Shown in pieces: positions 5,008-36,000 of a DNA stretch of 64,000 bases; within the stretch, counting starts at the first letter, position 1; each line of letters begins with the position of its first letter. A program made the translations under genes and the position numbers. The stretch comes from Parcubacteria group bacterium (GTDB taxonomy: Bacteria > Patescibacteriota > Minisyncoccia > Moranbacterales > UBA9337): assembly GCA_041662245.1 (NCBI GenBank), contig JBAZSW010000002.1:89017-153016 (forward strand), written 5' to 3'. The notes beneath the pieces were generated by a model. It did no database searches and had not been told where the DNA came from. It worked only from the letters and a program-made list of their open reading frames with translations.

Positions 5008-8000
5008 ATGTCCAAATTTCAAAAACTAATCTTAATATTTTTTTTCATATTAATCGGACTTTCTTCCGCAACTTTCGCGTCGGCCGCGGGGAATGTTTAT
5101 TATTCCGTCGGCCAATCCACCGCTAACCTCATGACGGGCGCGCCCAATGTGGCCATCACGAGTGGCGTGGCTACTTTTGACGTGGCGCAGACTGCCAACA
5201 TTGGCGTGGGGGATGTGATAGTGGCTAATGCCATTTCCTATTATATCGCCTCCAAAACTTCCACCACCGTTTGGAATGTAGTCACCAATACAGGAGCTAC
5301 GCCCACTGACATCACCTCCACTGCGGTCACTTCAGTGAAACACGTTTACACTTCTTTGAATTCGGCGGTGACAGGCGCGTCTACTCTTTTGGGCAGTTCT
5401 GACTTGACGACGGCCGACGTAGTTTTAAATATTCCTTGCTATTATGACTCCGCGGCTGACACGACCGCCGTGACTGTTAGTGGTTACACCACCGATGCGA
5501 CGCGGTATATCAAGATTTACACGCCAAGTAACACCACGACGGAAGCGAACAATTCGCAAAGGCATAGTGGGAAGTGGGATGCGACAAAATATCAATTGGC
5601 AGTATCTGGAAATTCCGCACTATATACGAGCGTCAGTTACACATATATTCAGGGATTGCAAGTGGCTCTTGATATAAGTGTATCTAGCACAAATATAGCG
5701 GGCATATTTTCTGTTAGTACATATGTGAAAATAACCGGAAATATTGTTAAGGCTAACAATACAGGCGTTCCTAGTTATTATAAACAGGGAATTAGAGTTA
5801 CTACCGTCGGAACGGGCGTTGGGGTTTGGAATAATATAATTTATGGATTTCAATATAGCGGGCTGACGTATTATGGTGGAATATCGGCGAACTCCGCTGG
5901 AGCTTATGTGTATAACAATACTGTATATAATAATGGGGGAGGTATCTACATTGCTGCAAATACTTTCGCCAAGAATAATATTTCCTACAATAACTCGTTG
6001 GATTATTATGTAGGTGCTGGTGCATTTGATGCTTCTTCTACTGGTAATCTTTCCAAAGATGCCTCCGCTCCGGCGCTCAACACATATTACAGAAATAAGA
6101 CATTGACTTTCGTCAGCACCATTTCCGGTGGTGAAGATTTTCATTTGGTTCCTGCTGATACGGATGCGATTAACAAAGGAGCGGATTTGAGTGGCGATGC
6201 CAATTTGCCATTCACCACCGACATCGATGGCGCGCCGAGGAATGCTTCGATTAATGCTTGGGACATCGGGGCGGACGAAGCGGCGACGCAGATTTTCCGC
6301 AGTGTCGCTCCGAGTGCCACGGCGGTTTTGGAAAGTGACACTTCGCACGCTCGCACTGTGACACTTACCAGCGGCGTGGCGACTTTTAGCAATGCTCTCT
6401 CTGACACCATCGGGGTGGGGGACGCGGTGCTGATCGACACGGGCGGCACGGATCAAGCGATTGATGCTTCAGACACATTATTATTCATCAGTGGTCGTAA
6501 TTCTTCTACCAGCTACAACCTACAAACTAATAATGGTTCTGTACCCAGTAACATTGCCAGCAACGATACTTATCAAATCTATCGCGCTTACACTTCCATC
6601 GCTAACGCCGAGGAGGGAACCAAAAACACCTCCATCCCTATCGCTTTCAATGGCGGCAATCGCAATATTTTCACCAACAATGAACAATGGAACATCGCGT
6701 GTTATGCCAATGGGACCACGGCGGATGCCAGGGCGGTAGTCAGCGGTTGGACAACGGGTACGAATAATTATATCAAAATCTATACTCCCGTGAATTTGAC
6801 CGAAGTGGGCACGAGCCAAAGGCATGCTGGCAAATGGGATGACAGTAAGTATAAGATGGAGATCAATGCTAATTTTTATATTTATGCAGCCAATACTAGA
6901 TTTGACGGAATCCAGATCAAGGGCAGTGGCAGTGAAGATGTCATCAGTTATGATAATTTCAATTCTTCCGGCGGAGAACAGGTCGTGTCCAATTCGATTA
7001 TCCGCGGAGGCACGCGCGGTATCGCTGGAGTGCGCGCTAATACAAAAATTAGGATTTACAACAATATCATCTATACGATGGCCAATGCTGGATTGTATCC
7101 TTGTCCTACCGATTCCTTTTGCTATATGTATAACAATACATTATACAATACAGGAACATATGGCATTTATACCAACGGTGGTACAGCCATTGCCAAGAAT
7201 AACATCGTCTATGGTGCTGGTAATTTTAACACCTATGCTGGGACTTTTTCGGTCGGGACGGATAACAACGCGACTGACAGCACGGATGCGATTGGACAAG
7301 GCTCCAATAACAGAATCAGCCAAACTTTCTCTTTCGTTTCCACCGTGAGTGGCTCGGAAGACTTCCATCTCCAGTCGACTGATGCCGGCGCGCGAAATTA
7401 TGGCGCGGATATGAGCGCGGATGTTAATTTTGCTTTTGCCACCGATATCGACGGCGCGTCGAGAAATGCGAGCATTAACGCGTGGGATATCGGGGCGGAT
7501 GAAACCGCTACCCAGATTTTCAGAAGTGTCGGACCCAGTGCTACGGCGGTGCTCGAAAGTGATACATCGCATGCTAGAACAGTGACTCTTACTAGTGGAG
7601 TGGCGACTTTTAGTAATGCTCTCTCTGACACCATCGGGGTGGGGGACGCTGTCATCATCGACACGGGTGGCACGGATCAAACCATTGATGCTAGTGATAC
7701 GATATTATTTATCAGCAGCAGAAATAGTGCTACCAGCTACCAGCTACAAGCTAACAACGGCTCCGTACCCAGTAACATTACTATCAATGACACTTACCAA
7801 ATTTACCGCGCCTACACCAGTTTGAGTTTGGCGGAAGCGGGGACGAAGAATGCGAGCATTCCGATGACTTTTAATGGTGGTGATCGCGATTTGGTGGCGA
7901 ATAATGAGCAGTGGAATCTAGCGTGTTATGCCAATGGAACGACGGCGGATACGACTGCAGTGACAGTGAGTGGCTGGATCACTGCACAACAGGATTTTAT

Positions 8001-11000
8001 TAAAATTTACACGCCAGTAACCACGACCGAAGTGGGAACGAGTCAAAGGCATAATGGTAAGTGGGATGATGGGAAGTATAGATTGGAATATACTGGCAGT
8101 TTCGCCACAACATTAGATTCTGCAGTGATGGATATTTGGGTGGACGGATTGCAAATAAAAAGAGTGACTACTCAAAATTATGGAAATATTATAGCCTTAC
8201 GCGTTATTTCCAGAAGTAAAGTTAGCAATAACATAGTTAATTTTGTTGATACTTATACCAATTCAACTAAAGCAATATCCAATGTGTCTTCAGATGGAAG
8301 TCCGAGTTATTTTTGGAATAATATAATGTATGGAACTAGTTTGGACTATGGATACTATCAGGCAGATGCTTATGGCTATGTGTATAATAATACTGTTTCT
8401 GGTGCTGGAGATGTTGGTTATTTTTCTGGTTTTCAATTGAGAATGTTTGTTAAAAATAATATTGCTCAAAATTGTGTGGATGGATTTTTGGCTTCAAGCG
8501 GAAATTTTGGTGTTGGTTCGGATTATAATATTTCTGATTTGAGTGCCGACGCTCCCGGAGCTAATTCCAAAAATTCTACCACCGTCGCTTTTGCTGACTC
8601 CGCCAACAAAGACTTTCACCTCGCCCCCACTGACACCGCCGCCAAAAATTCCGGCGTGGATTTGAGTACGGATGCTAATTTGCCAATCACCACCGATATT
8701 GATGGCCAAACTAGAAGTGCCACCCCCAGCTGGGATATCGGCGCGGATGAAGCGGCCAATGCTGTGTACTATAGTGTCGGTCAATCCACCGCGGACTTGA
8801 AAACTGGCACGCCTAATGTCGCCATCACCAGTGGCGTGGCCACTTTTGACGCGGCGCAGACTGGGAACATCGGGGTGGGGGACGTCATGATTGCTAATGC
8901 CATCTCATATTACATATCAAGCAAAACCTCCACCACCGTTTGGAATGTGGTGACCAATACGGGCGCCACTCCCGCCAACATCACTTCCACGGCCGTCACT
9001 TCCATCAAACATGTTTACACTTCTTTGAACTCCTCCGCCTCCGGTGCGGGCACGCTCTTGGGCACGACTGATTTATATACCAATAATTATCAAATTAATC
9101 TGCCTTGTTATTACGACTCCGCGGCGGACACGGCGGCCGTTACCGTGAGTGGTTACACGACTGCGGTGCCCAATTACATTAAGATTTACACGCCGAATAA
9201 TACTTCTACGGAAGCCAATAATTCGCAACGGCATGGGGAAAAATATGACATTACAAAATATCGACTTGAAGTAACTGACGCGAACGGATTGGCATTGACA
9301 GGAGTTGATACTAAAATAATTGGCCTCCAGATTAAATTGACTGCAACAACTAGCTGGAGATCGGCAATTGCCCATGGTATTAATTATAGAGGCAACATTG
9401 AAATAGCAAATAATATCATAAAAGGTGTTTTAACAGGTAATATAACAGATTTTGGTCTATGGATAAAAAGAAACAATGTAAATACGAAAATATATAACAA
9501 TGTTATTTATGGTTTCAAGAGTGATTTGACTGCCTCTTGCGCTGGAATGTGGTTTGGTTTTGAAGGAGGAGTCGGGTCGTCAATTAAGAATGTTTTTAAC
9601 AATACATTTTATGGAAATTATTATGGTTTGAACTCCATGGATGGCGGTGTTACTGTAGTGGCGAAGAATAATATTTCTTATAATAATCCATATAAAGACT
9701 ATAATGGTACTTTTGATGCTTCCTCCACCAACAACATTTCCAAAGATACCACGGCGCCGCCCTATAACACCTATTACACCAACAAAACCTTGTCTTTTGT
9801 CAGTACCATTTCCGGTGCAGAAGATTTTCATTTGGCCTTCACGGATACGGACGCCCTCAACAAGGGAGTAGATCTGTCGGCTGACACTAGTTTCGCTTTC
9901 ACCACCGACATCGACGGCCAAACCAGAAATCAAAACAGTCTCGGGTGGGACATTGGGGTCGACGAAGCAGCCACCCAGATTTTCTATTCCGTCGGACAAA
10001 ACACATCTGATCACAAAACTGGTTTGCCAACCGTGACAGTCAGCGGTACGACCGCCACTTTCAGTGTGGCACAAACAGCGACCAATATGGGCGTGGGGGA
10101 TCTGGTGACTTATACAGGTGGAATATGTTACCTGAGCGCCAAAACTTCCACCACTGTTTGGAGTTGTATATCTGCGACGGGTGGAACGCCGACCGCCGCC
10201 ACCAACGCCACTGTCACCAGCATCGCGCATGCGTTTGCGTCATTGAGTGCGGCAATGTCTGGGTCAGGTCCCGGAGCCAGCAATTCATCTCATCTTAATA
10301 CTACTAACTTAGTAACAAATAATTATCAACTCAACATTCCTTGCTATTATGACAGTGGGGCAGATACTACAAGAGGCAATGTATATGGCTTTACTACTGG
10401 TGCCAATAATTATATTCGCCTTTATACTCCGAATAATGTGGCAGCAGAAGTGAATCTTAGCCAACGGCATCAAGGCAAATGGGATGATGCAAAGTATCGT
10501 TTTGAATATACTGCCACAGGCAGTTCTGATTATGCCCTATATATACAAGAACCATATATCAAGATTGACGGATTACAAATCAAAAGTTCAGATGGTGGAT
10601 ATGGCTATAGCGCTGGCATTGGTATAAATAGCGTATATAGCATTACTAGCAGCAATTTAGAAATATCAAACAACATTATTAAGGCCGGAACGCTTACAAA
10701 CGCCACCGTTGCCGCTGCGGGCATTGGCAACTATTCTGGTGGAAAAAGTTTGATTTATAATAATGTCATTTACGGTTTTAATGTTGATGGATCAAGTACG
10801 AAGGGAAGGGGGTTGCATATTCGAGGAAGTGCCTATGTTTATAATAATACTTTTTATGATTGTTATCATGGTATTTATAATTATGATGGAACTGCTTATG
10901 CTAAAAATAACATCGTACAAAGTGCTACCGATGGCTATGCAGGATCATTCACTTCTTCCGATTACAACATTTCCAACCTTGCGGCTGATGCTCCGTCAGC

Positions 11001-12540
11001 TTCATATCGAAGTGGCCTTGCGACAACTGCTGCTTTTGCGGATGTGGGCAACAAAGATTTTCATCTCGCCAATTCCGACACCGCCGCGCAAGGCAAGGGG
11101 GTGAATCTGACAACTGACACCAATTTACCTTTCAACGTTGACATTGATAGCGAGCAGCGCGGAACCTATTGGTCGATCGGGGCGGACGAGCCAATCGGAG
11201 TCAACGTGCAAACACCACCAGCAACTAGTCCTAACCTCGGCATCAATTCTGGCCTCGTCGGTTATTGGTCGATGGATGGTCAGACAATCTCCGGCACGAC
11301 CGTGAAAGATTTATCCGGCAACAATAATAACGGCACCAACAATGGTGCGGCGCAAGCGGTCGGCAAAAGAGGACAAGCGTTATCGTTCAATGGGACGAGT
11401 GATTATTTGGATGTGGGGAGTATTGCTATGGCAGACAATACTTCTTGGGCGGTTTCTACATGGTTTTATCCCACAGGTTCGAGCTATCAAGCCCTAGTCG
11501 GGAATACATATACTAGTAGTAGCTATGGAAGAATTCAGATAAGATACAACGATTTGTACATGTTTTATAATGATGCCAATGGTGGCATAAATTGGAATGT
11601 TGGAAGCGGAATGCCTTCAAATACTTGGCATCATGCAATTATAATTTGCAATGGAACAGATTCGAATAATCTAGAATTATATTTGGATGGTGTTTCTCTG
11701 GGCTATAAGACTTTGGCAGATTCTGGTTGGACTGCTAAATATTTGGGAAAATCAGGAAGTAGTAGCTATTGGAGCGGAGCTATGGACGAAGTTCGCGTCT
11801 ATAACCGCGCAATTTCAGCGGATGAAGTCGGACAGCTTTATCGGACGGGAGAAGAAAAATTGCAAACTTCGCAGACAGACAAAATGACCAATGGCTTGGT
11901 GGGGATGTGGAGTTTTGATGGGGCGGACATTTCCGGTACGACCGCCTATGACCGCAGCGGACAAGGCAACAATGGAACGATCAATGGTGTCACGCCGGCG
12001 ATTGGAAAGCGTGGCCAGGCTTTGAATTTCAATGGGACAAGTGATTATGTCAATATTAGTAGCACCCCGACTATCCTCGAAGGGAAAACGGCCTTTACGA
12101 TAAACTTTTGGGCCAAGAGCAGTGTGGCCTTGCCGGTATCGAAAGGAATATTTTCTAACATGGTAAATACTAATCAGCTTGTATCCGATTGTTCTGTTCT
12201 GGCAAATGATAATTATTTATTTAGAGTTTATGACGACACGGGAGTATCAAGTAGTTTTCAATTAGATGGGAGTGATATTTTTCCGGATACCAATTGGCAT
12301 TACATTTCTAATGTTTTTAGCAATGGATTAGCTTCTGTCTATGTCGATGGAGTGTATAAAGGCATATCTTCAACGACTATCGGAGCCAGTCGGAGTGGCG
12401 GTGTTACAAAAGCTTTTCGTTTAGGGAATGGCCAAGGTTATTGGAACGGAGCGCTTGATGAATTTCGCATCTATGACCGCGCGCTTTCTGCAGATGAAAT
12501 TAAAAATTTGTATGATATGGGACAGGCGGCGGTGAAATAG
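5008..12540 (+). CDS. Giant secreted modular protein (2510 aa): signal peptide, 5 beta-sandwich/beta-helix modules, 2 C-terminal LamG-like lectin domains
   Basis: Signal peptide MSKFQKLILIFFFILIGLSSATFASAAG. Modules end in EDFHL...DLS.D.N..F.TDIDG..R...WDIGADE and contain N-ladder beta-helix turns (NNIIYG, YNNTxYN, AKNNI). C-terminal LamG hallmarks are LVGYWSMDG...FNGTSDY...DEVRVYNRAIS..EV.QLY and a second copy. Confidence 0.85.
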   Translation: MSKFQKLILIFFFILIGLSSATFASAAGNVYYSVGQSTANLMTGAPNVAITSGVATFDVAQTANIGVGDVIVANAISYYIASKTSTTVWNVVTNTGATPTDITSTAVTSVKHVYTSLNSAVTGASTLLGSSDLTTADVVLNIPCYYDSAADTTAVTVSGYTTDATRYIKIYTPSNTTTEANNSQRHSGKWDATKYQLAVSGNSALYTSVSYTYIQGLQVALDISVSSTNIAGIFSVSTYVKITGNIVKANNTGVPSYYKQGIRVTTVGTGVGVWNNIIYGFQYSGLTYYGGISANSAGAYVYNNTVYNNGGGIYIAANTFAKNNISYNNSLDYYVGAGAFDASSTGNLSKDASAPALNTYYRNKTLTFVSTISGGEDFHLVPADTDAINKGADLSGDANLPFTTDIDGAPRNASINAWDIGADEAATQIFRSVAPSATAVLESDTSHARTVTLTSGVATFSNALSDTIGVGDAVLIDTGGTDQAIDASDTLLFISGRNSSTSYNLQTNNGSVPSNIASNDTYQIYRAYTSIANAEEGTKNTSIPIAFNGGNRNIFTNNEQWNIACYANGTTADARAVVSGWTTGTNNYIKIYTPVNLTEVGTSQRHAGKWDDSKYKMEINANFYIYAANTRFDGIQIKGSGSEDVISYDNFNSSGGEQVVSNSIIRGGTRGIAGVRANTKIRIYNNIIYTMANAGLYPCPTDSFCYMYNNTLYNTGTYGIYTNGGTAIAKNNIVYGAGNFNTYAGTFSVGTDNNATDSTDAIGQGSNNRISQTFSFVSTVSGSEDFHLQSTDAGARNYGADMSADVNFAFATDIDGASRNASINAWDIGADETATQIFRSVGPSATAVLESDTSHARTVTLTSGVATFSNALSDTIGVGDAVIIDTGGTDQTIDASDTILFISSRNSATSYQLQANNGSVPSNITINDTYQIYRAYTSLSLAEAGTKNASIPMTFNGGDRDLVANNEQWNLACYANGTTADTTAVTVSGWITAQQDFIKIYTPVTTTEVGTSQRHNGKWDDGKYRLEYTGSFATTLDSAVMDIWVDGLQIKRVTTQNYGNIIALRVISRSKVSNNIVNFVDTYTNSTKAISNVSSDGSPSYFWNNIMYGTSLDYGYYQADAYGYVYNNTVSGAGDVGYFSGFQLRMFVKNNIAQNCVDGFLASSGNFGVGSDYNISDLSADAPGANSKNSTTVAFADSANKDFHLAPTDTAAKNSGVDLSTDANLPITTDIDGQTRSATPSWDIGADEAANAVYYSVGQSTADLKTGTPNVAITSGVATFDAAQTGNIGVGDVMIANAISYYISSKTSTTVWNVVTNTGATPANITSTAVTSIKHVYTSLNSSASGAGTLLGTTDLYTNNYQINLPCYYDSAADTAAVTVSGYTTAVPNYIKIYTPNNTSTEANNSQRHGEKYDITKYRLEVTDANGLALTGVDTKIIGLQIKLTATTSWRSAIAHGINYRGNIEIANNIIKGVLTGNITDFGLWIKRNNVNTKIYNNVIYGFKSDLTASCAGMWFGFEGGVGSSIKNVFNNTFYGNYYGLNSMDGGVTVVAKNNISYNNPYKDYNGTFDASSTNNISKDTTAPPYNTYYTNKTLSFVSTISGAEDFHLAFTDTDALNKGVDLSADTSFAFTTDIDGQTRNQNSLGWDIGVDEAATQIFYSVGQNTSDHKTGLPTVTVSGTTATFSVAQTATNMGVGDLVTYTGGICYLSAKTSTTVWSCISATGGTPTAATNATVTSIAHAFASLSAAMSGSGPGASNSSHLNTTNLVTNNYQLNIPCYYDSGADTTRGNVYGFTTGANNYIRLYTPNNVAAEVNLSQRHQGKWDDAKYRFEYTATGSSDYALYIQEPYIKIDGLQIKSSDGGYGYSAGIGINSVYSITSSNLEISNNIIKAGTLTNATVAAAGIGNYSGGKSLIYNNVIYGFNVDGSSTKGRGLHIRGSAYVYNNTFYDCYHGIYNYDGTAYAKNNIVQSATDGYAGSFTSSDYNISNLAADAPSASYRSGLATTAAFADVGNKDFHLANSDTAAQGKGVNLTTDTNLPFNVDIDSEQRGTYWSIGADEPIGVNVQTPPATSPNLGINSGLVGYWSMDGQTISGTTVKDLSGNNNNGTNNGAAQAVGKRGQALSFNGTSDYLDVGSIAMADNTSWAVSTWFYPTGSSYQALVGNTYTSSSYGRIQIRYNDLYMFYNDANGGINWNVGSGMPSNTWHHAIIICNGTDSNNLELYLDGVSLGYKTLADSGWTAKYLGKSGSSSYWSGAMDEVRVYNRAISADEVGQLYRTGEEKLQTSQTDKMTNGLVGMWSFDGADISGTTAYDRSGQGNNGTINGVTPAIGKRGQALNFNGTSDYVNISSTPTILEGKTAFTINFWAKSSVALPVSKGIFSNMVNTNQLVSDCSVLANDNYLFRVYDDTGVSSSFQLDGSDIFPDTNWHYISNVFSNGLASVYVDGVYKGISSTTIGASRSGGVTKAFRLGNGQGYWNGALDEFRIYDRALSADEIKNLYDMGQAAVK

Positions 12541-12675
12541 AATGGACATTCGATGTCGAAAATCTTTTTATGGTATAATGGGGGAAGAGAGGAGGATTTG
12601 AAATAAATTTCGAATTTTGAATTTCGAATTTTGAATCAATTTCGAATGAATAAATGATAAGAAATGTTTCCTCTT

Positions 12676-12750
12676 GTCATTTCGACCGAATAAATATTTG
12701 TACTCAAATATTTAGAAGTGGAGACCTGCCTGCCGGCAGACAGGAATCTT
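12676..12750. repeat. Intergenic repeat family B (long form with GC palindrome CCTGCCTGCCGGCAGACAGG)
   Basis: The unit gtcatttcgaccgaataaatatttgtactcaaatatttagaagtggagacctgcctgccggcagacaggaatctt recurs at 16074-16148. Short forms lacking the GC hairpin are at 14343-14400 and 41224-41280. A partial copy is at 40931-40990. The unit contains a perfect AT hairpin AAATATTTG-TACT-CAAATATTT. Confidence 0.8.
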
Positions 12751-12822
12751 AGATGAATCAGAGATATAAGATGAATTTCGAATTTTGAATTTTGAATTTC
12801 GAATCAATTTCTAATTATCTAA

Positions 12823-13052
12823 TGTTTCAAAATTAAAACATTAAGATTTGAATCAAAATTTTAAATTTCAAATTTAAAGTTTAAAATGAATAAAAAAATA
12901 TTAAATGATTAAAACAGATACGAAATATAATAAGAAAAAGATTGAAATTAAAATTTATTCATTTAAAATTGATTTCAAATTTCAAATTTAGCCTTTAAAA
13001 TTAGAGCTATATTTACAAAAATTAAAAATTCTAAAAATTACAAAATTAAAGT
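12823..13052. repeat. Repeat family A, copy 3
   Basis: Sequence identity to the other A copies. Confidence 0.8.
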
Positions 13053-13097
13053 TATGAAGATGTTGCTATTGACTAATGTCATAATTTAGTATAAAAT

Positions 13098-13113
13098 TGA
13101 TATTATAATATCA
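13098..13113. promoter_or_regulatory. 16-bp perfect palindrome TGATATTATAATATCA (contains a TATAAT hexamer) 16 bp upstream of the ATPase start
   Basis: Perfect inverted repeat seen directly in the sequence. Confidence 0.5.
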
Positions 13114-13128
13114 TAATTAAATAAAAAT

Positions 13129-14714: not shown

Positions 14715-14761
14715 TATATATGATACCCAAAGCAAGTTTGATTTTACAACTAAGCTGATAA

Positions 14762-25300: not shown

Positions 25301-25925
25301 GACTGCGATTGGTAATGGTACTTGCTCAGCCTCTGCCAGTACTCCTTGGTACAACGGCCGCACCGGCAAATATAACGCTTCTTTGAATTTTGATGGAACG
25401 GATGATTATGTTAGTGCCAATAGCACTATTTCTTCTGGCACGGCTGGTAGTACGGTGGTGTGGATAAAGCCATCTGGCTCATATACTAATTCGCAGTGTC
25501 CCGTAGGGGGGATAGGTGCTGGGGGTGCCAGCTATCAATCACGCTATTTGATTTGCGCGATTTATAATGCTGTTTGTGGAGACAGTAGTTGGAGTGCGTG
25601 GATTGGCAATGGGACCACCTATCAATATGCTTGTTCGACGCAAGTTTATAATTCGACTAATTTTCCGGCTGGGGTTTGGACACAGTTGATTGCAACCTAT
25701 GATGGTACGAATATAAAATTATATAAAGATGGTATTTTGGTAAAAACAGTGGCACAGACAGTCAGTGGGGCCGGTGACGCTCAACCATTTTCCATCGGTC
25801 GCTTAGGTGGTTACAATGGCGGACGTTTCAATGGTCAAATCGACAACGTTAAAATTTTCAACTACGCGCTGACCCCGTTACAAGTTCAGGCTGAATATAA
25901 TAACGGCGCTAGTGTGGGATTTTGA
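16365..25925 (+). CDS. Giant secreted modular protein (3186 aa): signal peptide, 6 modules, 4 C-terminal LamG-like domains
   Basis: Same signal peptide and module grammar as the 5008 gene. The sixth module is divergent (TVEFAPTVMQTGGDYSSLNSW...). C-terminal LamG signatures are DDAKIFNYALSDSQIKTLY, DQVQIFNYARTPAQIAW and DNVKIFNYALTPLQVQAEY. Confidence 0.85.
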   Translation: MSKFQKLLLILVFTIIGLSSATFASAASNVYYSVGQSTADLKNGTPNVSITSGVATLSVAQTGNIGVGDVIVANAISYYISSRSSQSVWNVVTNTGATPTNITSTAVTSIKHVYPSLSAAVTGASTLLGSSNLTTADVVLNILCYYDSGADTTAVTVSGYTTDATRYIKIYTPSNTSTEANNSQRHSGKWDASKYRLEVSAATALSNSNLYTVIEGLQIYETPNAHDQSAIYSTTSSTIKGNICKGDATNSTYRQHGINILSTNGNTIYIENNVVYNFSRIYSSGILMNSGYPIFYALNNTVYNNYNGIYNSGVDTAKYIKNNISMGSSGFNFAGTFDSNASNNVSYDATAPGTGSLTNQSLAQVAFISTVSGNEDFHLQPSSVAKNIGVDLSSYFTTDIDGATRNTAINAWDIGADEAATQIFRSVGPSATAVLESDTSHARTVTLTSGVATFSAALADNIGVGDAVLIDTGGTDQTIDASDTILFISSRNSATSYTLQANNGSVPSDIAVNDTYSIYRAYTSLSLAEAGTKNTSIPITFNGGNRDLATNNEQWNLACYANGTTADTTAARIDSWTTDTTRFIKIYTPVTTAEVGISQRHSGKWDTSKYRLETGTGASSLRVTQNYTVVQGLQVYNSSTVNEENGISLDAYRNHMTARDNIVKGGYTGISTGSQSSSDGNNYIINNIVYGAYRTGINANNPVSTNPNFVYNNSVSGCNVGVVEYGYGITASAEGIVENNISINLGGYGTYKKDFAATIQSYNISQDTSATGTGSLTGKTNTDVKFVSIISGAEELHLQAGSVAKNVGADLSGTFTTDIDGQTRSASLGWDIGADEAANAVYYSVGQSTANLMTGTPNVAITAGVATFDVAQTGNIGVGDVIVANAISYYIASKTSTTVWNVVTVTGATPTDITSTAVTSIKHVYTSLNSAAAGAGTLLGTTDLYTNNYQINIPCYYDSAADTTAVTISGYTTAMPNYIKIYTPNNTTTESNNLQRHSGKWDDGKYKLSLPGTLSGITINIGYIKIDGIQLKYTNSTVTARRGISVNGEKGTSVWISNCILQGVISGAITNVEGVMFEYSTTGNRTAYFWNNIIYGFINDSNDIYGIYSRAPWKVYAYNNTLYNNYKGLYAEVSNLVLAKNNTVYNNTSYDYSGTFDASSTNNISKDATSPNAGATDCGGHSCRSQTVAFISTTSGAEDFHLASTDTAARNSGADLSTDANLLVATDIDGNARPASAGFDIGADEAAAQIFYSVGQNTTDHKTGSPTVTVSGTTATFSVAQTATNMGVGDLVTYTGGTCYISAKTSTTVWSCLSVTGGAPTAATNASVTSIAHAFASLEGTVDAGTASGAFDATHLNTKDLVAGNYQLNVPCYYDSGADTTAVTVQSWTTGFYNYLRIYTPVSTTSEVNQSQRHGGKWDDGKYSLQPPLGTNTVLNLSTSNVDIDGIQIKHSKSDGSGATTIKTYYGEIKNNIIVEVGTSVGYAIGNWRANTLIYNNIIYGISGSPRVGISAQNGQLFYAYNNTIYGLSVGLGISWGHIIAKNNVAYNNVTDYSGTFEVSSTNNLSKDGTAPPFNTYYTNKTLAFTNVTSGAEDFHLVTTDTDSINKGADLSADTSLSFTTDIDGAPRNAAINAWDIGADETATQIFRSVAPSATAVLESDTSHARTVTLTSGVATFSNALSDTIGVGDAVLIDTGGTDQTIDASDTILFISSRNSATSYTLQANNGSVPSDIAINDTYSIYRAYTSLSLAEAGTKNASIPMTFNGGDRNLFTNNEQWNIAAYANGTTADTTAVAVSGWTTAQQDFIKVYTPVSTTEVGTSQRHAGKWDSGKYRLEVDATYVTILDSIDNNVVIDGLQIKFIATNYSQAGLRIRGKNNYISNNIIQGAISGSASNNYAIYPYYVSNPSNMYIWNNIVYGFNSSGGAGISLAYTNNIYLYNNTLYGNASGIKVPISSSAIAKNNIAYNNGTDYVTSGTGYFNSASTNNLSKDATAPAYNTYYVNKTLDFIDTANKDFHLSQTDTAARGVGANLSDDAAFSVETRLIASLRQDIDGQMRNPAGAGWDIGADEGTVEFAPTVMQTGGDYSSLNSWNVGVASNLTAATTRVFAHGGKTGTIADNASVTGLTSNATATVVHASATQILLENISGTFQTGETVQVTAGNSVVIADNGNPASAVAKIDGAWTSADTTAVTINGFTTGADDYVRIYTTPIARHQGKWDDGKYRLEISNANIIYSYMSYVRIDGLQIEATRDGSTAIGIRLSTSAGAGDFNVSGCIFKGINNSTGTHYGLYITNSLVNLYIWNNIIYGFQSIGMFLNASNAFVYNNSVNNNVTGIYRNNGRVVSKNNISYSNTTKDYDGSFDASSTNNLSSDATSPNSGATDCGGHSCRNQTVAFISTTSGSEDFHLSSSDTAAKDSGIDLSGDANLRFTTDIDVASRQANKWDIGADEFWEAQTGGSVGGASAITTPAVADYDFNEGFGSLAHNAGSGGATLNGTLNAGGIGTNPTTTAMWDKGGKFGGAIEFDGTDDYVSATQNGTALTQLSVSFWLKSNSTPTSDKGVFQWVNILSAPNPFIAISRTANTNNYRFFIDGNDRVTTAMVNNSWYFVSLVLNSSNLWTVYINGTSVGTYQDDATHAYQASANSVYFGNDFFGYLDGLMDDAKIFNYALSDSQIKTLYNNNSALSAGNDASRNNNGTTVTGTAKDYCIPGDTAQCDKPVGEWKMDEKVAGDAKTIYDTSGNGNDGTTHWGANASGMDCSVPGKFGSGCGFDGVDDYVSVANNSVLDIADNGNFSFGGWFKISSNTGDAEQPIISKRNSNTGPNYQGYELFIKSDNTIDCLIQQNGSNSSDIWSTTTYNDGKWHYAECVLTSGVSNKLFVDGINVASDVTSIPSTGFSNSQPLTFGISSNYSPWNFSGSIDQVQIFNYARTPAQIAWDFNKGGPIAEWRLNECTGATVHDETTNGNNGTINLGTSGTQTTAIGNGTCSASASTPWYNGRTGKYNASLNFDGTDDYVSANSTISSGTAGSTVVWIKPSGSYTNSQCPVGGIGAGGASYQSRYLICAIYNAVCGDSSWSAWIGNGTTYQYACSTQVYNSTNFPAGVWTQLIATYDGTNIKLYKDGILVKTVAQTVSGAGDAQPFSIGRLGGYNGGRFNGQIDNVKIFNYALTPLQVQAEYNNGASVGF

Positions 25926-26736: not shown

Positions 26737-26835
26737 AACACTCAATAACCAATACTCATTCAATATCCGATAAATTAACATTCAATTGAACATTTTGATA
26801 GTGATTATTGAATGAATATTGAGTATTTAATATAA
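26737..26835. repeat. Palindromic AT-rich element, family C
   Basis: Large imperfect inverted repeat (...aatactcattcaata... / ...tattgaatgaatattgagtatt...). Related copies are at 57508-57625, 58845-58950, 60349-60410 and 60790-60850. Confidence 0.65.
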
Positions 26836-27096
26836 CAATGAAGCAGTGGGATTCTGATAATAATTTTTAATTTTTATATTTTTAATTTTTAAATAATGCT
26901 CAAATTTCTAATTTTTAAAAATTAAGAATTCAGATTTATTTATAAAATTACAAAAATTACAAAATTAAAAATTCTATAAACTGTGATTTAGAAGAGAGAT
27001 GCACAAAATTTGTAGAGTCTGCATATTGCAAAATTAAAAAATTCAGATTTATTTACAAAAATTAAAAATTCTAAAAATTACAAAATTAAATTCATA

Positions 27097-30000
27097 ATGT
27101 CCAAATTTCAAAAACTATTATTAATCCTAGTATTCACGATAATCGGACTTTCTTCCGCCTCTTTGGCGTCGGCCGCCACTCAGATTTACCGCTCGGTCGC
27201 TTCCGGTGTCACGGCAACTTTGGCGACAGATAGTTCGCACGCCAACACGGTGACAGTTACTTCTGGCACCGCTACTTTTTCAGCTGCACTTCCTGACAAT
27301 ATCGGAGTTGGAGATGCAGTTCTCATAGATACAGGAGGGACAGATCAAACTATCGACGCTTCGGACACTTTGTTATTCATCCACGCCCGTGCCAGTTCTA
27401 CCAGTTATACGCTCAAAACTCATACAGGTGCTACTCCATCGGATATTTCTATCAACGACACTTATAGTATTTATCGCGCTTACACTTCTCTTTCCAATGC
27501 CGAAGCGGGGACAAAAAACACCAATATTCCGATTACGTTTAATGGTGGCGATAGAAATCTGGTGACCAATGATGAAGTTTGGAACTTCGCTTGTTATGCG
27601 GCTGGGACGACGGCGGATACGGCGATGACTACTATCGATAGTTGGACGACGGACTCGACGCGGTATATGAGAATTTACACTCCTGTAAGCACGACTGAAG
27701 TAGGGACGAGTCAACGGCACAGTGGGAAGTGGGATGAGAGTAAATACTATATAAGTATTGGGAATAATTCAGCAGGAATATATTACAATATAAAATATTT
27801 AGTAATTGATGGAATACAAATTAAAGTTACTTCTTCTGACAGTTCTGGTTCCGTAGGAATCCAAGCTTATAACAGCTCGATAGTGGCGGGGGGAGAAATA
27901 ACTATAAAAAATAATATTGTTCGAGGTCAACTCAGCGGGACTGATCCTGGGAGCGCCGGTATCGCAACCAGTGGCTATTCTCCTAATAGCGGAGTGATTA
28001 AAATTTTCAATAATATAGTGTATGATTTTGCCAGAGTAACCGGTACTCCTCAAGCTATTTTTTTTGGAGCTGGCGATCACTATATCTATAACAATACAAT
28101 CATTAATTGTTATGGTGGTCTTTATAAAAATGGAGGAAGCTCCGCTGCTGTGGCAAAAAATAATATTGTCAAAGGAGCCACCGATGCTTATTATGGAACT
28201 TTTACTACGGGAACAGATTATAATGCTACTGATGGGACAGATGATATCGGCACAGGATCAAATAATAAAATTTCTCAAACTTTTTCTTTCATTGACGAAA
28301 CTAATGATGATTTTCATCTTTCCTCCACTGACACGGCCGCGCGAAATTCTGGTATTGATTTAGCAACCGATACTTATTCGCCTTTTGCCACTGATATCGA
28401 CGGCGCGGGCCGAAGTGCGACGGTGAATGCGTGGGACATCGGGGCGGATGAAACCGCTACGCAAATATTCCGCTCGGTCGGACCAAGCGCCACAGCAGTT
28501 TTGGAAAGTGACACATCGCACGCTCGCACAGTGACGCTCACTAGTGGCGTGGCGACTTTCAGTGTGGCTCTGGCTGACGATATTGGAGTGGGGGATGCAG
28601 TTTTGATTGACACAGGCGGAACAAGTAACGCCATTGATGCATCCGATACAATATTATTTATCAGTGCCCGCAATTCTTCTACCAGCTACAATCTACAAAC
28701 TCACACAGGAGCTGCTCCCAGCGACATTACTATCAATGATACATACAGTATTTATCGTGCCTATACCAGTTTGAGTTTGGCCGAAGCGGGGACGAAAAAT
28801 ACTTCCATTCCGATAACTTTCAATGGTGGTAATCGCGATTTAGTGACCAACAATGAAGAGTGGAATCTAGCTTGTTATGCTAATGGAGTGACAGCGGATA
28901 CGACCAGTGTAACAGTGGCTGGTTGGACCACTGCACAACAGGATTTTATTAAAATTTATACTCCCGTAACCACAACCGAAGTGGGGACGAGTCAACGGCA
29001 CGGGGGGAAGTGGGATATGGGAAAATATAACTTAACTGTAGATAGCGGTAGTTGGAGAGCAATAACCAACGAAGTTTCATATATGACTATAAATGGTCTG
29101 CAAATATCTAAGGATTGCCAAAATAATAATGATAGCAATGCCGTTCGTGATCAGGGTGTAGGTGGACTTGTAAATATTTCCAATAATATAATTAAAGAAA
29201 CTTCAACTAATTCACTTACTGCCTCGCAGGGAGTTCGAAAACATTGGGGATCGGGAACAGTTTTGATTTGGAATAATATTATTTACGGATGGCATGGCAC
29301 GGGTAATTACGTATCAGGAATAGTTAATGCTAGTGCTTCTGCTGCTTATCTATATGGATACAACAACACTATTTATGACTGCAATATAGGCATTAGAAGA
29401 GATACGGGAACAATTATTGCTAAAAACAATATTACCCAAAATTGCACTGATGGTTATAGTGGGACTTTTGATTCTTCTTCCGACTATAACATTTCCGACC
29501 TCGCCTCTGATAACACGGGTGGGGCGCATGACAAACAAGCTACCGTGGCTTTCGCTGACACGGCCAACAAAGATTTCCACCTCGCTCCCACCGACACGCA
29601 AGCTAAAAATTCCGGTGCGGATTTGAGCGCGGATGCTAATTTGCCTTTTACCACTGATATTGATGGCCAGACCAGAAGCGCCACTCCTGGGTGGGACATC
29701 GGCGCAGACGAAGCGGCCAACGCGGTCTATTATTCTGTTGGCCAATCCACCGCGGATTTGAAAACAGGCTCGCCTAATGTCGCCATCACTGCTGGCGTGG
29801 CCACTTTTGACGTGGCGCAAACAGGGAACATTGGCGTGGGGGATGTGGTGGTGGCGAATGCCATTTCTTATTATATATCGAGTAAAACCTCCACTACCGT
29901 GTGGAATGTGGTCACAGTCACGGGAGCCACGCCCACCAACATCACTTCCACGGCGGTTACTTCGATAAAACATGTTTACACTTCTTTGAATTCTGCTGTT

Positions 30001-33000
30001 TCTGGTGCGTCCACTTTGCTGGGCACGACTGATTTATATACTAACAATTATCAGATTAACATCCCGTGCTATTATGACAGTGCCGCCGATACGACTGCCG
30101 TGACAGTTTCTGGTTACACCACGGCGGTGCCCAATTACATCAAAATCTATACGCCGTATAATACGACGACGGAGAGTAATAATTCGCAAAGGCATAGCGG
30201 GAAGTGGGACGCCACGAAATATCGTCTCGTCACAACTTTGGGTAATATTTCTGTCAGTTATGTTAATAATGTGAAAATAGACGGACTGCAATTGGAATCG
30301 CAAGCCACAGTGGCGAGAAGAGTTATTATAATGATTGGCTCTAATATGGCAATTTCCAATAATATTTTGCGATATTCAGGTGCAGCGCCTGTTGAAGCGA
30401 TTTTTTGTAATTCTACCCAAACCAATATTGATGTTTGGAACAATATTGTTTATGGTTTTGCTAATGGCGGTGATGGAATATATATAACAAATAATAATAA
30501 TGGTAGCGCAAGGGTTTATAATAATATTGTATATGGCGGTACATACGGGATTACTACTGGTAATACTGATATTATTGCTAAAAATAATATTTCTTATAAC
30601 AATACTACTTATGATTTCTCTTCCGGCACTTTCCATTCCACCTCCACCAACAATCTTTCTAAAGATGCCACCGCTCCGCCACTCAACACTTATTACACTA
30701 GTAAAACTTTGGCTTTTACTAGCACCACTGCCGGCGCCGAAGATTTTCATTTGGTGGCCGCTGATACGGATGCAATTAACAAAGGGGCGGATCTCTCCGC
30801 CGACACCAATTTGGCTTTTTCCACCGACATCGATTCTCAAACCCGCAATCTACGCAGTGAGGGCTGGGACATCGGCGCCGACGAGGCCGCCACACAAATA
30901 TTTTACAGTGTCGGACAAAACACATCTGACCACAAAACCGGTTCGCCATTGGTCACAGTCAGTGGTACGACGGCGACTTTTGACACCGCCCAAACAGCTA
31001 CCAATATGGGCGTGGGGGATTTGGTCACGTACACGGGTGGCACGTGTTATATCTCCGCTAAAACTTCTACCACCGTTTGGTCCTGTCTTAGTGTGACGGG
31101 TGGCGCGCCGACCGCTGCCACTAATGCAAGTGTTACGAGCATCGCGCATGCCTTTGCATCTCTCGAAGGCGCCGTGGATGCCGACATGGCTACGGGCGCT
31201 TTTGATGCAACGCATTTGAATACTAAAGATTTAGTGGCGGGCAACTATCAGCTCAATGTGCCGTGTTATTATGATAGTGGAGCGGATACTACTGCGGTGG
31301 TGGTGCGATCTTGGACGACGGGAGCGCAGGATTATATTCGGATTTATACACCGGTGAGTACGACCACTGAAGTCAATCAGACGCAGAGGCACAGTGGGAA
31401 GTGGGATAGTGGGAAATATAATATGCTAATCAGCTCTGGTGCGAGCGGGAAAGCCATATATGTTGCTAATCAATATATTCGCATAGATGGATTACAGATA
31501 AAAACAGTCGGTTATGGAGGAATTTGGTCAAATGTTATATACGGTGCTAAAGGTCAAATTATCAGTAATAATATTATTTGGGGAAGTGGAACTTTCACTG
31601 CTGCTGGACAAGGAATTGGTTGGTTTGGTAATGTAGCTAGCGTATCAGCTTACAATAACATCATTTACGGGTTTACTTATGCCGGTTCGTATGGTATTAG
31701 GTTAGACCAATATACTCAAGATAAGACGCCGGTGGTTTATAATAACACTGTTTATGGTTGTGACACGGGAATTTTACAAGACGCCGATGCCTATTATTCC
31801 AACAACATCGCCTACAACAACGGCGTGGATTTTAGCGGTACGTCCAGAGCCGGTTCGACCAACAATCTTTCCAAGGACGGTACGGCAACAGGAACGAACG
31901 CTAAAATAAATCAAACAGTGGCATTTACTTCCACCGCTTCTGGTAGTGAAGATTTTCATCTCGCCTCCACTGATACGGCGGCCAAAAATTCTGGGGCGGA
32001 TTTGTCAGCGGACGCTAATCTACCATTTGCTACCGATATCGACGGCGCTTCGAGAAATGCGAGCATCAATGCTTGGGACATCGGCGCGGATGAAACAGCC
32101 ACGCAGATATTCTACAGCGTCGGTCAAAATACTTCTGATCACAAAACCGGTTCCCCAACGGTCACCGTTAGTGGCACGACCGCCACATTTGACACCGCTC
32201 AAACAGCTACCAATATGGGCGTGGGGGATTTGGTCACTTACACTGGTGGGACTTGTTATATTTCTGCTAAAACTTCTACTAGCGTTTGGTCTTGTGTTAG
32301 TGCAACTGGTGGTACACCAACGGTGGCCAGCGGTGCAAATGTCACGTCCATCGCGCACGCTTTTTCAGCTTTGAGCACAGCCCTTGATGCGGACTCTATT
32401 TCTACTTCAGCCGGTAATTCATCGCATCTCAATACGAATAATCTGGTGACGGGCAATTATCAACTTAATGTGCCCTGCTACTATGATAGTGGTCCGGATG
32501 TCGGGGCGTATGTCCGAAGCTGGACAACAGGTGCACAAAACCATATTAAGATTTACACGCCGGTGAGCACGACAAGTGAAGCTAATCAGACGCAACGGCA
32601 TAGTGGGAAGTGGGACAACACGAAATATTCCATAAACGCCACGGGTCTAGGTCAGAATATAAATTCATGGAATATCGATTTAGTAATCGAGGGTCTTCAG
32701 ATTTACAAATATGCCGCAGATGGTTATACCTCTATAATAACTGTTAACCCAGCTGCATTTTCCAGGATATCTGCCAACATATTCAAGGGTGACAATAACT
32801 TTGGCTCTGCTTATGGAATAAGTGGTGGAAGTGCCAGTTTGAATGTAAATATATACGATAATGTTTTTCAAGATTTTAGATCGCCCTCCAGTTATTTTTG
32901 GACGATAAATCCGGCGGCGGGCAATTGGTATGTCTACAACAACACTTTCTATAATTGTCACATCGCTCTTCGGGGAATCTCTGGCATGGTGGCCAAAAAT

Positions 33001-36000
33001 AATATCGTTCAAAACTGTGTCGATGGGTATGACGGCACATTCAATTCCGCTTCCGACTATAATATTTCCGATCTCGCTTCAGACAACACTGGTGGGGCGC
33101 ATGACAAACAAGCCACCGTGGCTTTCGCTGACACTGCCAACAAAGATTTTCACCTCGCCCCCACTGACACGGCCGCCAAAAATTCCGGCGCGGATTTATC
33201 AGCGGACGCATATCTGCCATTTGCCACCGACATCGACGGCCAGACCAGAAGTGCTACCCCCAGCTGGGACATCGGCGCCGATGAAGCGGCTAATGCTGTC
33301 TACTATTCTGTCGGGCAATCCACGGCGGATTTGAAAACCGGTACGCCCAATGTCGCCATCACCTCGGGCGTGGCTACTTTTGACGTTGCGCAGACTGGGA
33401 ACATCGGGGTTGGGGATGTTATGATCGCTAACGCTATCTCATATTACATATCAAGCAAAACTTCCACCACTGTTTGGAATGTGGTTACCAATACGGGTGC
33501 TACGCCAACTGACATCACGTCCACGGCCGTGACTTCCATCAAGCATGTTTACACTTCACTTAACTCTGCCTCTTCCGGTGCCGGCACACTCCTTGGCACA
33601 ACTGATCTATACACTAACAATTACCAAATCAACATCCCTTGCTATTATGACGGTGCAGCCGACACGACATCTGTGACAGTCTCTGGCTACACCACGGCTG
33701 TGCCCAATTACATCAAGATTTATACGCCATATAATACGACGACCGAGAGTAACAATTCGCAAAGGCATAGCGGGAAGTGGGACGATGCAAAATATCGTTT
33801 AGTATCGGCCAGTCCTACAACCGTCCAACTCAATAGCTCCTATATCATGCTTGAAGGTATTCAACTAAAAAATACCAATACAACATCGGGTGCTGATACC
33901 GCCATAATATATACCAGTTTAAATAACGCTAATTCTTTGTTGACAATCAATAAGAATATTGTTGTGGCTCAAGTGTCCGGAGTTGGCACGATGTATGCTT
34001 TTAAGGATATCTATCAGACGACCAAGAACGCTATATTCAGTAATAATTCTTTTTATAACATAACCGGCGGGACGGCGGAAGATAGAGCTATTATTATGGA
34101 TGGAGGAAACTTTTATATATATAACAACACTATTTATAATGCCGAGGCTGGACTTAAAATAACTTATTCTTCCACGGTTATCGCTAAAAATAATATAGTG
34201 CAAGGCGCTACGGATGGATATTATGGTACTTTTGATTCCTCTTCTGATTACAACATTTCCAATCTATCCAGCGACACGACGGGTGGCGCGCATGACAAAC
34301 AAGCCACGGTGGTTTTTATTTCTACTACGGCCGGCGTTGAAGATTTTCATCTAGCTTTGACTGACACCGCTGCACGAAATTCCGGAGTGGATTTGAGCGC
34401 CGACACCAGTTTCGCTTTCACCACCGACATTGACTCTCAAACCAGAAATCAAAACGCTCTCGGTTGGGACATCGGCGCCGACGAGGCCGCCACACAAATA
34501 TTTTACAGTGTCGGGCAAAACACCACTGACCACAAAACCGGTACGCCGTTGGTCACGGTAGCGGGTACGATGGCGACTTTTGACACCGCCCAAACCGCCA
34601 CCAATATGGGCGTGGGGGATCTGGTCACGTACACGGGTGGCACTTGTTACATTTCGGCTAAAACTTCCTCTACCATTTGGAGTTGTATATCTGCGACGGG
34701 TGGCACGCCAACGGCCGTCATCAACGCGAGCGTCACTTCCATCGCGCATGCCTTTGCATCTCTCGAAGGCGCCGTGGATGCCGGCACTGCTTCGGGGGCG
34801 TTTGATGCGTCGCATCTCAACACCAAAGATATAATGGCGGGCAACTTTCAACTCAACATTCCTTGCTATTATGACAGCGGAGCGGACACTACGGCTGTCA
34901 CCGTGCAATCTTGGACGACGGGAGCACAGAATTATCTTAAGATTTATACGCCCAACAACACGACCAGTGAAGTCAATCAGACCCAAAGACATGCTGGGAA
35001 ATGGGATGATACTAAATATGATCTTAAAATATCAACTAATGCCCACAATATGCAAATTTCAATTAGTTACATTCATATTGATGGATTACAAATATACCAA
35101 TATGCTGATAATTCAGCCAAGGTCAGTTTATATGTCTACTCTCCTAATACAGGCATAGAAATATCAAATAATATTATTCGGGGTAGGGGTAGTTATACAA
35201 CAGGGACACATTTGGGGATAAATATCGCCACTTCTAATAAAATATGGAACAATATTATTTATAATTTTAATGTAACTGGCTCAGTCGGAATCAATTCAAC
35301 GGGCAGTTATACGAATCAATACATATACAATAATACTATCTATAATTGCGCTGTAGGTATTGCTCGATCAAATGCTACGGTAATTCTCAAAAACAACATT
35401 GCCTACAATAATGGAACTGACTATTCTGGCACTTTCGATGCTTCTTCCACCAATAATCTTTCCAAAGATGCTACGGCTCCGCCTCTCAACACTTATTACA
35501 TCAATAAAACATTGGCTTTCACCAATGTTACTTCCGGCGCCGAAGATTTTCATTTGGCCACTACTGATACGGATGCCATCAATAAAGGTGCGGATCTCTC
35601 TGCCGACACCAGTCTATCTTTCACTACCGACATCGACGGTGCGGGTCGAATCGCGGCGGTGAACGCGTGGGACATCGGAGCCGATGAAACCGCCACCCAG
35701 ATTTATCGCTCGGTCGCTCCGAGCGCCACAGCAGTTTTGGAAAGTGATACTTCCCACGCTAGAACTGTGACAATCACCAGTGGAGTGGCCACTTTTAGCA
35801 ATGCTCTCTCTGACACTATTGGAGTCGGGGACGCTGTCCTCATCGATACAGGTGGTACGGATCAAACCATTGATGCTAGTGATACTATATTATTCATCAG
35901 CAGCAGAAATAGTGCTACCAGCTACAACCTACAAACTCATACAGGAGCTACTCCCAGCGACATTACTATCAATGATACATACAGTATTTATCGAGCTTAT

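Follow-up and report, generated by a model that had tools for sequence, protein, structure and literature searches.

The stretch analysed here, hereafter the window, comprises 64,000 nucleotides (nt) of a Parcubacteria group bacterium (contig JBAZSW010000002.1, positions 89,017 to 153,016) and carries three giant genes, A, B and C, that are built of tandem beta-helix modules. The locus is a paralogous family of modular surface-protein genes in which the junctions between modules are kept by selection and the cores have diversified, with occasional short-tract conversion and exchange of cores. Strong purifying selection on old paralogs accounts for most of the DNA similarity of the junction blocks; constraint on the cores is much weaker or diversifying. 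Occasional recombination has left its mark on the junction blocks as short conversion patches, tens of bases long, that link modules and also different genes. At least one core, nearly identical to a core of a different organism, appears to have passed recently between lineages whose synonymous sites are saturated elsewhere. An earlier, sequence-only reading had described near-identical GC-rich cassettes alternating with AT-rich beta-helix segments and had attributed this mosaic to ongoing gene conversion or unequal recombination between cassettes. Known modes of surface-protein evolution fit the locus: the mosaic is real, its identity was overestimated and its cause was misattributed.

Conserved junction blocks and divergent cores

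All three giant open reading frames (ORFs) are complete and uninterrupted over 7.5–12.4 kb, each with its own start codon and signal peptide (Table 1), and they are predicted to encode three paralogous proteins of giant size, secreted or exposed at the surface, in a Parcubacteria/Moranbacteria-like bacterium. Using hmmsearch with a profile built from a few repeats, we found 21 full tandem modules of about 400 amino acids (aa) or 1.2 kb each, five in gene A, six in B and ten in C. A module consists of an N-terminal subdomain (approximately the first 510–560 nt), a beta-helix core (the next 450–500 nt) and a C-terminal part (the last 250 nt or so) that ends in WDIGADE; SQRHxGKWD and DFHL are further conserved motifs, and alignment indels show that core length varies between modules. 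The conserved block is thus the C-terminal part of one module together with the N-terminal subdomain of the next. The N-terminal subdomains belong to four types, R, Y1, Y2 and the orphan Q. Type R carries the motif 'IFRSV.PSATAVLESDTSHAR'. Type Q, with the motif 'TVMQ.GG.YS.L..W', is found within the window in B6 (22578–23714) alone, where it has no paralog; the type recurs in the metagenome loci L072, L074 and L075, alternating there with R-type modules. Between 5095 and 39426, the module types form a three-module super-repeat, R-Y1-Y2, with a period of approximately 3.57–3.67 kb (spacings 3669, 3573 and 3672), which suggests past duplication of three-module blocks, though the cores in corresponding blocks are unrelated.

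Fold comparison identified a right-handed parallel beta-helix of three-stranded, pectate-lyase-like coils. The match to the beta-helices of polysaccharide lyases and depolymerases is at the level of the fold only (9–17% identity). The Pfam model Beta_helix (PF13229, cut-off 25.9 bits) matched gene C with 30.5 bits and remained under its cut-off for genes A (19.2) and B (22.5), as did the TIGR03804 score. No Pfam or NCBIfam model covered the whole module in scans of both collections, and we found no published description of the module or of its mosaic composition; both appear to be undescribed. The module family is large: at 50% identity it falls into 9,850 clusters, and a single protein can carry up to 17 modules. 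Most members belong to Patescibacteria; the remainder come from Desulfarculales, Bdellovibrionales, Omnitrophota and further groups.

Block identities confirmed that conserved and divergent parts alternate. For all module pairs, the mean nucleotide identity per 20-column block was 0.46–0.66 in columns 1–200 and 401–498 and 0.31–0.55 in columns 201–400; within one N-terminal type, it was 65–90% in the N-terminal part, 30–50% in the core and intermediate in the C-terminal part. Conserved ends around a divergent core recur in 20 other genomes with at least five modules. The six example cassettes of the sequence-only reading are indeed module starts (A2 6292, A3 7516, B2 17631, B5 21300, C2 28465 and C8 35701), and all are of type R, but what had been taken for one family consists of four types. 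The claimed DNA identity of 90–98% proved too high: over 210 nt from their starts, the six sites had pairwise identities of 73–87% (mean 79%), which fell to 65–82% over 540 nt, and a repeat search gave 74–86% over 300 nt. Identities of 95–98% were confined to patches of 60–150 nt in the pairs B2/B5 and B4/C4. The longest exact match between any two modules was 77 nt (B4/C4), within a range of 26–77 nt that lay mostly below 40 nt.

Within a type, the proportion of differing synonymous sites (pS) in the N-terminal subdomain was 0.62, which corresponds to approximately 1.3–1.6 synonymous substitutions per site (dS), saturation being reached at a pS of about 0.74; the proportion of differing nonsynonymous sites (pN) was 0.11–0.19, and the ratio of nonsynonymous (dN) to synonymous rates was about 0.1. 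In the core, pS was 0.73 and pN 0.46–0.50. Since most differences among the example cassettes are synonymous and pS is near saturation, the copies are old and are held similar by purifying selection on the protein. For comparison with a different organism, we used L073, a Joint Genome Institute (JGI) landfill metagenome contig (Ga0172380; PMC9723747) with a giant gene of the same R, Y1 and Y2 types. For Y1, pS was 0.62 among window modules, 0.61 among L073 modules and 0.61 between the two sets; the corresponding values were 0.64, 0.59 and 0.66 for Y2 and 0.62, 0.71 and 0.73 for R, in the last case a slight within-window excess of similarity only. As window modules are as diverged from L073 modules as window paralogs are from each other, we conclude that there is no ongoing concerted evolution.

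Table 1 Coordinates of the giant genes, their modules and the tracts discussed in the text (positions in the window)
Feature	Coordinates	Strand	Description	Basis
Giant gene A	5008..12540	+	2510 aa; signal peptide, modules A1–A5, two LamG domains	ORF, translation, hmmsearch
Module A1	5095-6291	+	type Y1	hmmsearch, alignment, HMM-state mapping
Module A2	6292-7515	+	type R	as A1
Module A3	7516-8763	+	type R	as A1
Module A4	8764-9978	+	type Y1	as A1
Module A5	9979-11190	+	type Y2	as A1
Example cassette, R-type start of A2	6292..6501	+	example of the sequence-only reading; counterparts start at 7516, 17631, 21300, 28465 and 35701	
LamG (concanavalin A-like) tail of gene A	11191..12537	+	GC at four-fold sites (GC4) 0.49	
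Giant gene B	16365..25925	+	3186 aa; signal peptide, modules B1–B6, three LamG stretches	
Module B1	16452-17630	+	type Y1	
Module B2	17631-18884	+	type R	
Module B3	18885-20111	+	type Y1	
Module B4	20112-21299	+	type Y2	
Module B5	21300-22577	+	type R	
Module B6	22578-23714	+	type Q	
77-nt exact match B4/C4	20271..20347	+	partner 31057-31133; of the short conversion tracts inferred between different genes, the strongest	
58-nt exact match B4/C7	20473..20530	+	partner 34859-34916; second significant tract	
B5 core block	21840..22333	+	494 nt, 97.4% identical (13 differences) to L073 11822-12315 (module 6)	
LamG tail of gene B	23715..25922	+	GC4 0.55	
Giant gene C	27097..39498	+	4133 aa; signal peptide, modules C1–C10, without LamG tail	
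Module C1	27184-28464	+	type R	
Module C2	28465-29724	+	type R	
Module C3	29725-30897	+	type Y1	
Module C4	30898-32106	+	type Y2	
Module C5	32107-33297	+	type Y2	
Module C6	33298-34497	+	type Y1	
Module C7	34498-35700	+	type Y2	
Module C8	35701-36969	+	type R	
Module C9	36970-38178	+	type Y1	
Module C10	38179-39426	+	type Y2	

Recombination between cassettes and apparent exchange of cores

The proposed recombination between cassettes stands on an evolutionary time scale, but not as ongoing gene conversion of near-identical copies, given a pS of 0.62 and an equal Y1 pS across organisms. In a Sawyer-type run test on variable sites, the pair B4-C4 shared a tract of 47 concordant sites over 76 nt (global P = 0.0005) and the pair B4-C7 a tract of 54 nt (P = 0.0005); A4-B3 (P = 0.0025), C2-C8 and C4-C7 (both P about 0.01) followed. 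These tracts are short, 30–76 nt. A test of the pairwise homoplasy index (PHI) kind, in which nearby sites are more compatible than distant ones, was positive for Y1 (P = 0.0005) and Y2 (P = 0.001). In a sliding nearest-neighbour scan, the closest relative of a module switched every 30–60 codons along the N-terminal cassette. The nearest relatives of B5, for example, were in order A2, B2 (90–97%), A3/C2, module 6 of L073 and C8, with the B2/B5 identity of 90–97% extending over states 31–85 of the hidden Markov model (HMM). At identical amino acids, modules of one type used the same codon with a frequency of 0.53 in the N-terminal subdomain (0.36 expected) and of 0.48 in the core (0.47 expected). 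This excess of codon sharing in the ends and its absence in the cores mean that the ends trace back to more recent common ancestors than do their cores.

The core of B5 is nearly identical to that of module 6 of L073 (Table 1), and its flanks are not: the N-terminal cassette on the left is 76–80% identical and the 100 nt on the right are 72% identical (Fisher P = 1e-30). Within the block, pS was mostly 0.05–0.09 per 30-codon window, with a maximum of 0.23, compared to 0.3–0.9 in the flanking cassette; the adjacent single-copy ortholog ORF187 had a pS of 0.75 against its L073 counterpart. The breakpoints lie at the GKWD motif on the left and at NLSKDA on the right, the two best-conserved motifs bordering the core, and at the left one the sequence common to the window and L073 is no longer than a short conserved motif. 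The core of C7 (type Y2) is nearest to that of L073 module 1 (type Y1; 64–79%), and the core of A3 (type R) to that of L073 module 2 (type Y2; 62–71%). Since related cores stand behind different N-terminal types, cores and N-terminal cassettes have been re-assorted. Among the 76 loci that we fetched, there was no other near-identical core, save in overlapping or same-organism loci; a protein search with B5 gave none, and in one metagenome scan relatives reached at most 55% identity over the whole module.

Over one whole module and the N-terminal subdomain that follows it, two Moranbacteria metagenome-assembled genomes (MAGs), L013 and L014, have an identity of 99.7% (L013 approximately 11,890–13,270); starting within the second core, this falls to 89%, and past the gene the two cannot be aligned. 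We set this pair aside as proof of core-specific hypervariability, as the lower identity is not limited to the core but extends over the remainder of the gene and past its end. It represents strain-level recombination or an island boundary inside a module.

The possibility of a recombinational surface-variation system, raised in the sequence-only reading, was not borne out: the three genes are complete and have signal peptides, module fragments are absent outside them, and the flanks of the cores are too divergent (73–87% identity, pS 0.62). Indeed, a six-frame profile search of the window detected no silent or truncated cassettes outside the three genes (every other hit had E > 1), and a silent cassette archive within the window was therefore rejected. 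In Pfam scans of the ORFs of at least 150 aa outside the giant genes, matches were limited to housekeeping genes, AAA_14/DUF4143 ATPases, a Bro-N protein and an FG-GAP protein; there was no reverse transcriptase, integrase, transposase or recombinase. Exact-protein look-ups of population variants for A, B, ORF187 and the ATPases returned nothing or the same strain in Logan contigs of 1.3–4.5 kb.

Synonymous GC content and competing explanations

The contrast between GC-rich ends and AT-rich cores is real and holds at synonymous sites, both at third codon positions (GC3) and at four-fold sites (GC4). GC3 per 20-column block was 0.38–0.61 in the N-terminal subdomain, 0.24–0.34 in the core and 0.42–0.63 in the C-terminal part. 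The corresponding GC4 values were 0.59, 0.35 and 0.60, compared to 0.53 in the LamG tails and 0.29 in 15 housekeeping genes of the window. GC4 of the N-terminal subdomain exceeded that of the core in 21 of 21 modules and in 55 of 64 homologous loci (mean difference 0.15), which include loci with one module recovered; in these homologous loci, N-terminal ends are near the local background (+0.02) and cores under it (−0.13). The contrast is not peculiar to this locus, and a link to conversion between its paralogs was not supported; what is unusual is how far the ends stand over the housekeeping genes of the host (0.60 and 0.29). It is widespread among the homologous loci, it is present in the orphan B6 (N-terminal GC4 0.71), and in 23 genomes it did not rise with mean paralog identity (Spearman rho −0.35, P = 0.10). 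Therefore, paralog conversion at this locus is not its cause.

Several other causes were rejected. GC4 is equal at conserved and variable columns within each region, so the effect is regional and not site-specific, and selection for translational accuracy does not explain it. Amino-acid composition was dismissed because the contrast persists within single four-fold codon families. Neighbouring bases do not account for it either, since ends exceed cores before A, C or G and all regions are low only before T. The avoidance of G/C at four-fold sites before T is a dinucleotide effect across codon boundaries, with a GC4 of 0.25–0.30 in N-terminal, core and C-terminal regions alike, compared to 0.6–0.7 in the ends before A, C or G.

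In L073, GC4 was 0.70 in the N-terminal subdomain, 0.40 in the core and 0.63 in the C-terminal part. The AT-rich relatives L004, L007 and L008 had an N-terminal GC4 of just 0.26–0.30, and the GC-rich loci from outside the Patescibacteria showed no contrast between ends and cores. Core GC4 is approximately 0.2–0.4 across many Patescibacteria, near the background of 0.29 in this genome. The non-repeated genes of the region from 1 to 41 kb have a raised GC4 as well (0.31–0.52). At conserved four-fold columns, we inferred 37 strong-to-weak (G/C to A/T) and 14 weak-to-strong singleton changes, counts obtained with majority-rule ancestors at near-saturated sites, a method that inflates common-to-rare changes. 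Recombining bacterial genes tend to have a higher GC3 (Lassalle et al. 2015, PMC4450053). Of the marks of GC-biased conversion, higher synonymous GC in the recombining segments is present, and an excess of A/T-to-G/C changes and scaling with paralog similarity are not.

The explanation we favour combines old paralogs under selection, occasional recombination, swapping of cores and a compositionally foreign gene cluster, and taken as a whole we think it somewhat more probable than its negation. The motifs SQRHxGKWD and N[IL]S.D at the ends of the core may serve as crossover points, so that cores, which probably specify the ligand, could be swapped within and between genomes in the manner of phage tailspike receptor-binding domains. 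The GC content would then have two layers. The AT-richness of cores relative to ends at synonymous sites is a trait of most homologous loci, and it fits a weaker recombination-linked GC bias, or a weaker efficacy of selection, in a non-recombining hypervariable core that could pair only with its own allele. The second layer concerns this genome: the ends (0.60) lie far over the housekeeping genes (0.29), which we ascribe to a compositionally foreign cluster, acquired from, or in gene flow with, GC-richer relatives such as L073, and now drifting toward AT. A number of points weigh against this explanation. The polarity count that suggests the drift may be inflated by its method, and the background composition of the donor-like lineage is based on few flanking genes. 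It does not account for the AT-rich synonymous sites of cores across most homologous loci. The R type alone gave a weak signal in the PHI-like test (P = 0.23). No closely related strains were found in exact protein look-ups, the metagenome scan and the protein search. The near-identical core is one module pair in two metagenome assemblies, in which a mis-join via shared k-mers is possible, and the only independent assembly (Logan, SRR18595301) breaks at the giant genes.

Differential constraint without any recombination, with the mosaic signals due to rate heterogeneity or chance, would agree with the low dN/dS and near-saturated synonymous sites of the ends, with the recurrence of the pattern in 20 other genomes and with the non-significant R type; moreover, core dN (about 0.8) is lower than N-terminal dS (about 1.4), which by the numbers would allow ends and cores to be of the same age. 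It does not account for the pair-specific concordant tracts, with global P values down to 0.0005, or for the PHI-like results of Y1 and Y2, nor for a 494-nt core that is 97.4% identical to L073 inside flanks of 72–80%, for related cores behind different N-terminal types and for synonymous similarity kept in the ends and lost in the cores. It is already disfavoured, and we regard it as quite improbable. An active surface-variation system, with frequent conversion or unequal crossing-over of near-identical cassettes that produces variants in one population and biased conversion that makes the ends GC-rich, is at first sight attractive for 21 copies in 35 kb in which conserved blocks flank variable segments, with a three-module super-repeat of about 3.6 kb, the recombination signals, patches such as B2/B5 (90–97%, HMM states 31–85) as young as the B5/L073 core, and the published GC3 association. 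However, cassettes that are approximately 79% identical, with exact matches mostly below 40 nt, are poor substrates for frequent RecA-dependent exchange, and Y1 copies do not cluster within the genome relative to the other organism. Silent or truncated cassettes are absent from the window, the GC contrast is seen in loci with one module recovered and in the orphan B6 without increasing with paralog similarity, and substitutions point toward AT and not GC. We consider such a system highly improbable.

The GC contrast could also stem from a recombination-linked GC bias, by biased conversion or better selection efficacy, that acts through allelic or inter-lineage exchange and leaves the cores at mutational AT equilibrium. 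This proposal is compatible with our preferred explanation for the contrast across loci and a rival to horizontal origin for the contrast with this genome. It suits a regional effect, ends that match the local background in other genomes with cores below it, core GC4 close to the genomic background in many Patescibacteria, and the association reported in PMC4450053. We nevertheless think it unlikely: it cannot explain ends of 0.60 in a genome of 0.29 unless recombination is confined to the giant genes, the strong-to-weak excess (37:14) argues against present GC enrichment, AT-rich relatives carry AT-rich ends, and GC-rich loci outside the Patescibacteria lack the contrast. The last possibility concerns the data. 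An assembler may have mis-joined modules of one or of co-occurring organisms, creating apparent re-assortment and the near-identical B5 core, as the window and L073 are both metagenome contigs, modules share exact matches of 40–77 nt, and a separate short-read assembly of this organism breaks up precisely at the giant genes (the Logan contigs L070 and L071 of SRR18595301, 1.3 kb, are 100% identical to 13026–14301 and 14672–16033 and end where the giant genes start). Against this, all three ORFs are unbroken over their 7.5–12.4 kb, the B5 and L073 cores differ at 13 positions and so are not the same molecule, and the left breakpoint shares only a short conserved motif. The results on composition and selection are independent of module order, and the same architecture is present in hundreds of modules from 60+ contigs. 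An artefact is thus very unlikely in our view.

Genomic setting, related systems and significance

The product of gene B is identical to NCBI entry MFA6183740.1, from a 'Parcubacteria group bacterium' MAG. Pfam model PF13385 (Laminin_G_3) matched the products of gene A (129 bits, E = 1.9e-37, two stretches) and gene B (179 bits, three stretches) above its cut-off, and the Pfam scan gave no such match in gene C. AAA_14/DUF4143 ATPase genes and one small ORF lie between the giant genes; four of these ATPase genes (2360–3526, 13129–14262, 14824–15999 and 39573–40913) interleave with or flank them, and the giant genes of L072–L075 are likewise flanked by AAA_14/DUF4143 ATPases or similar P-loop ATPase-like ORFs. 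A Bro-N domain gene is located at 4037–4879 and an FG-GAP repeat protein with nine repeats at the window edge (60–1901), the latter with a GC4 of 0.45, raised like that of the other accessory genes of the first 41 kb. Downstream of the giant cluster follow infA, ribosomal protein genes, rpoA and aminoacyl-tRNA synthetase genes. The cluster is directly upstream of the tail of an infA-rpsK-rpsM-rpsD operon (41624–44110), in which rpsK (S11) stands ahead of rpsM (S13), the usual order being rpsM-rpsK-rpsD. The rpoA product clusters at at least 90% identity with Moranbacteria, and the sole tRNA of the window is at 61 kb.

In the spacer upstream of gene C, there is an imperfect palindrome of approximately 84 nt (26744–26827) without a match to any Rfam family. 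It is about 91% identical to L073 3868–3969 and 4986–5101, with less identity (77–80%) in the neighbouring coding DNA; weaker copies are found at 14610–14718 and 57504–57616, upstream of two other genes of the window. The same spacer (26843–26973) is matched by L002 7762–7892. Antisense ORFs of 150–280 aa on the minus strand overlie the GC-rich junction blocks at 5620–6456, 7141–7680, 9580–10230, 18558–19133 and 22506–23009, and further ones at 29350–29973, 30376–30840, 34351–34992 and 36550–37065. They are probably a by-product of the scarcity of stop codons in GC-rich antisense frames.

Comparison with known systems places the giant genes between several of them. In phage tailspikes and capsule depolymerases (P22, Sf6, HK620, Klebsiella phage), the likeness appears to be one of fold: the window genes are cellular and fuse up to ten units in one polypeptide, and the predicted proteins lack a trimerisation or particle-binding domain. 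Cassette-based antigenic variation (Neisseria pilE/pilS, Borrelia vlsE, Mycoplasma genitalium MgPa/MgPar, Treponema tprK) shares with the window conserved many-copy segments that flank variable ones and segmental conversion, but the window has no expression site with a silent archive, its flanks are approximately 79% and not near-identical, and its copies are old. The beta-helix autotransporters Pmp of Chlamydia, Helicobacter babA/babB, Neisseria opa and the 'homology blocks' of Plasmodium var are surface families shaped by recombination, with conserved and hypervariable blocks and mosaic ancestry as in the window genes. In these families, however, the repeated unit is the whole gene and not an internal module of a giant gene, and the host here is of the ultra-small Patescibacteria type and an outer-membrane autotransporter domain is absent. 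The segments with recombination signals have the higher synonymous GC, in line with the published association of GC and recombination (Lassalle et al. 2015, PMC4450053); the scale in the window is sub-genic (about 500 bp) and not gene-to-gene, substitutions are not GC-ward and the contrast is unrelated to paralog similarity. Like the giant genes of Omnitrophota (bioRxiv 10.1101/2023.11.21.568195), those of the window encode secreted proteins of great length with several domains, in bacteria that have small genomes and probably live attached to a host.

The giant proteins of the window can be seen as tailspike-like beta-helices strung together, to which lectin-like tails are added in A and B. 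In the current view, Patescibacteria are attached to other microbes, and the determinants of partner specificity are largely unknown. LamG/concanavalin-like domains have been proposed to mediate attachment in their surface proteins (PMC12911398). By analogy with the swapping of phage tailspikes, junction blocks might even be universal recombination adaptors, with specificity cores circulating among modules, genes and Patescibacteria lineages and the GC mosaic marking, below the scale of the gene, the places open and closed to recombination. We hold this to be rather unlikely; if true, giant adhesin-like proteins would draw their ligand-binding cores from a pool common to the whole community. 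The sub-genic mosaic in synonymous GC offers a clean natural contrast for recombination-linked GC bias versus selection in bacteria. If the cores bind a ligand and move between lineages via the junctions, they would provide a tractable handle on the evolution of host range in Patescibacteria.

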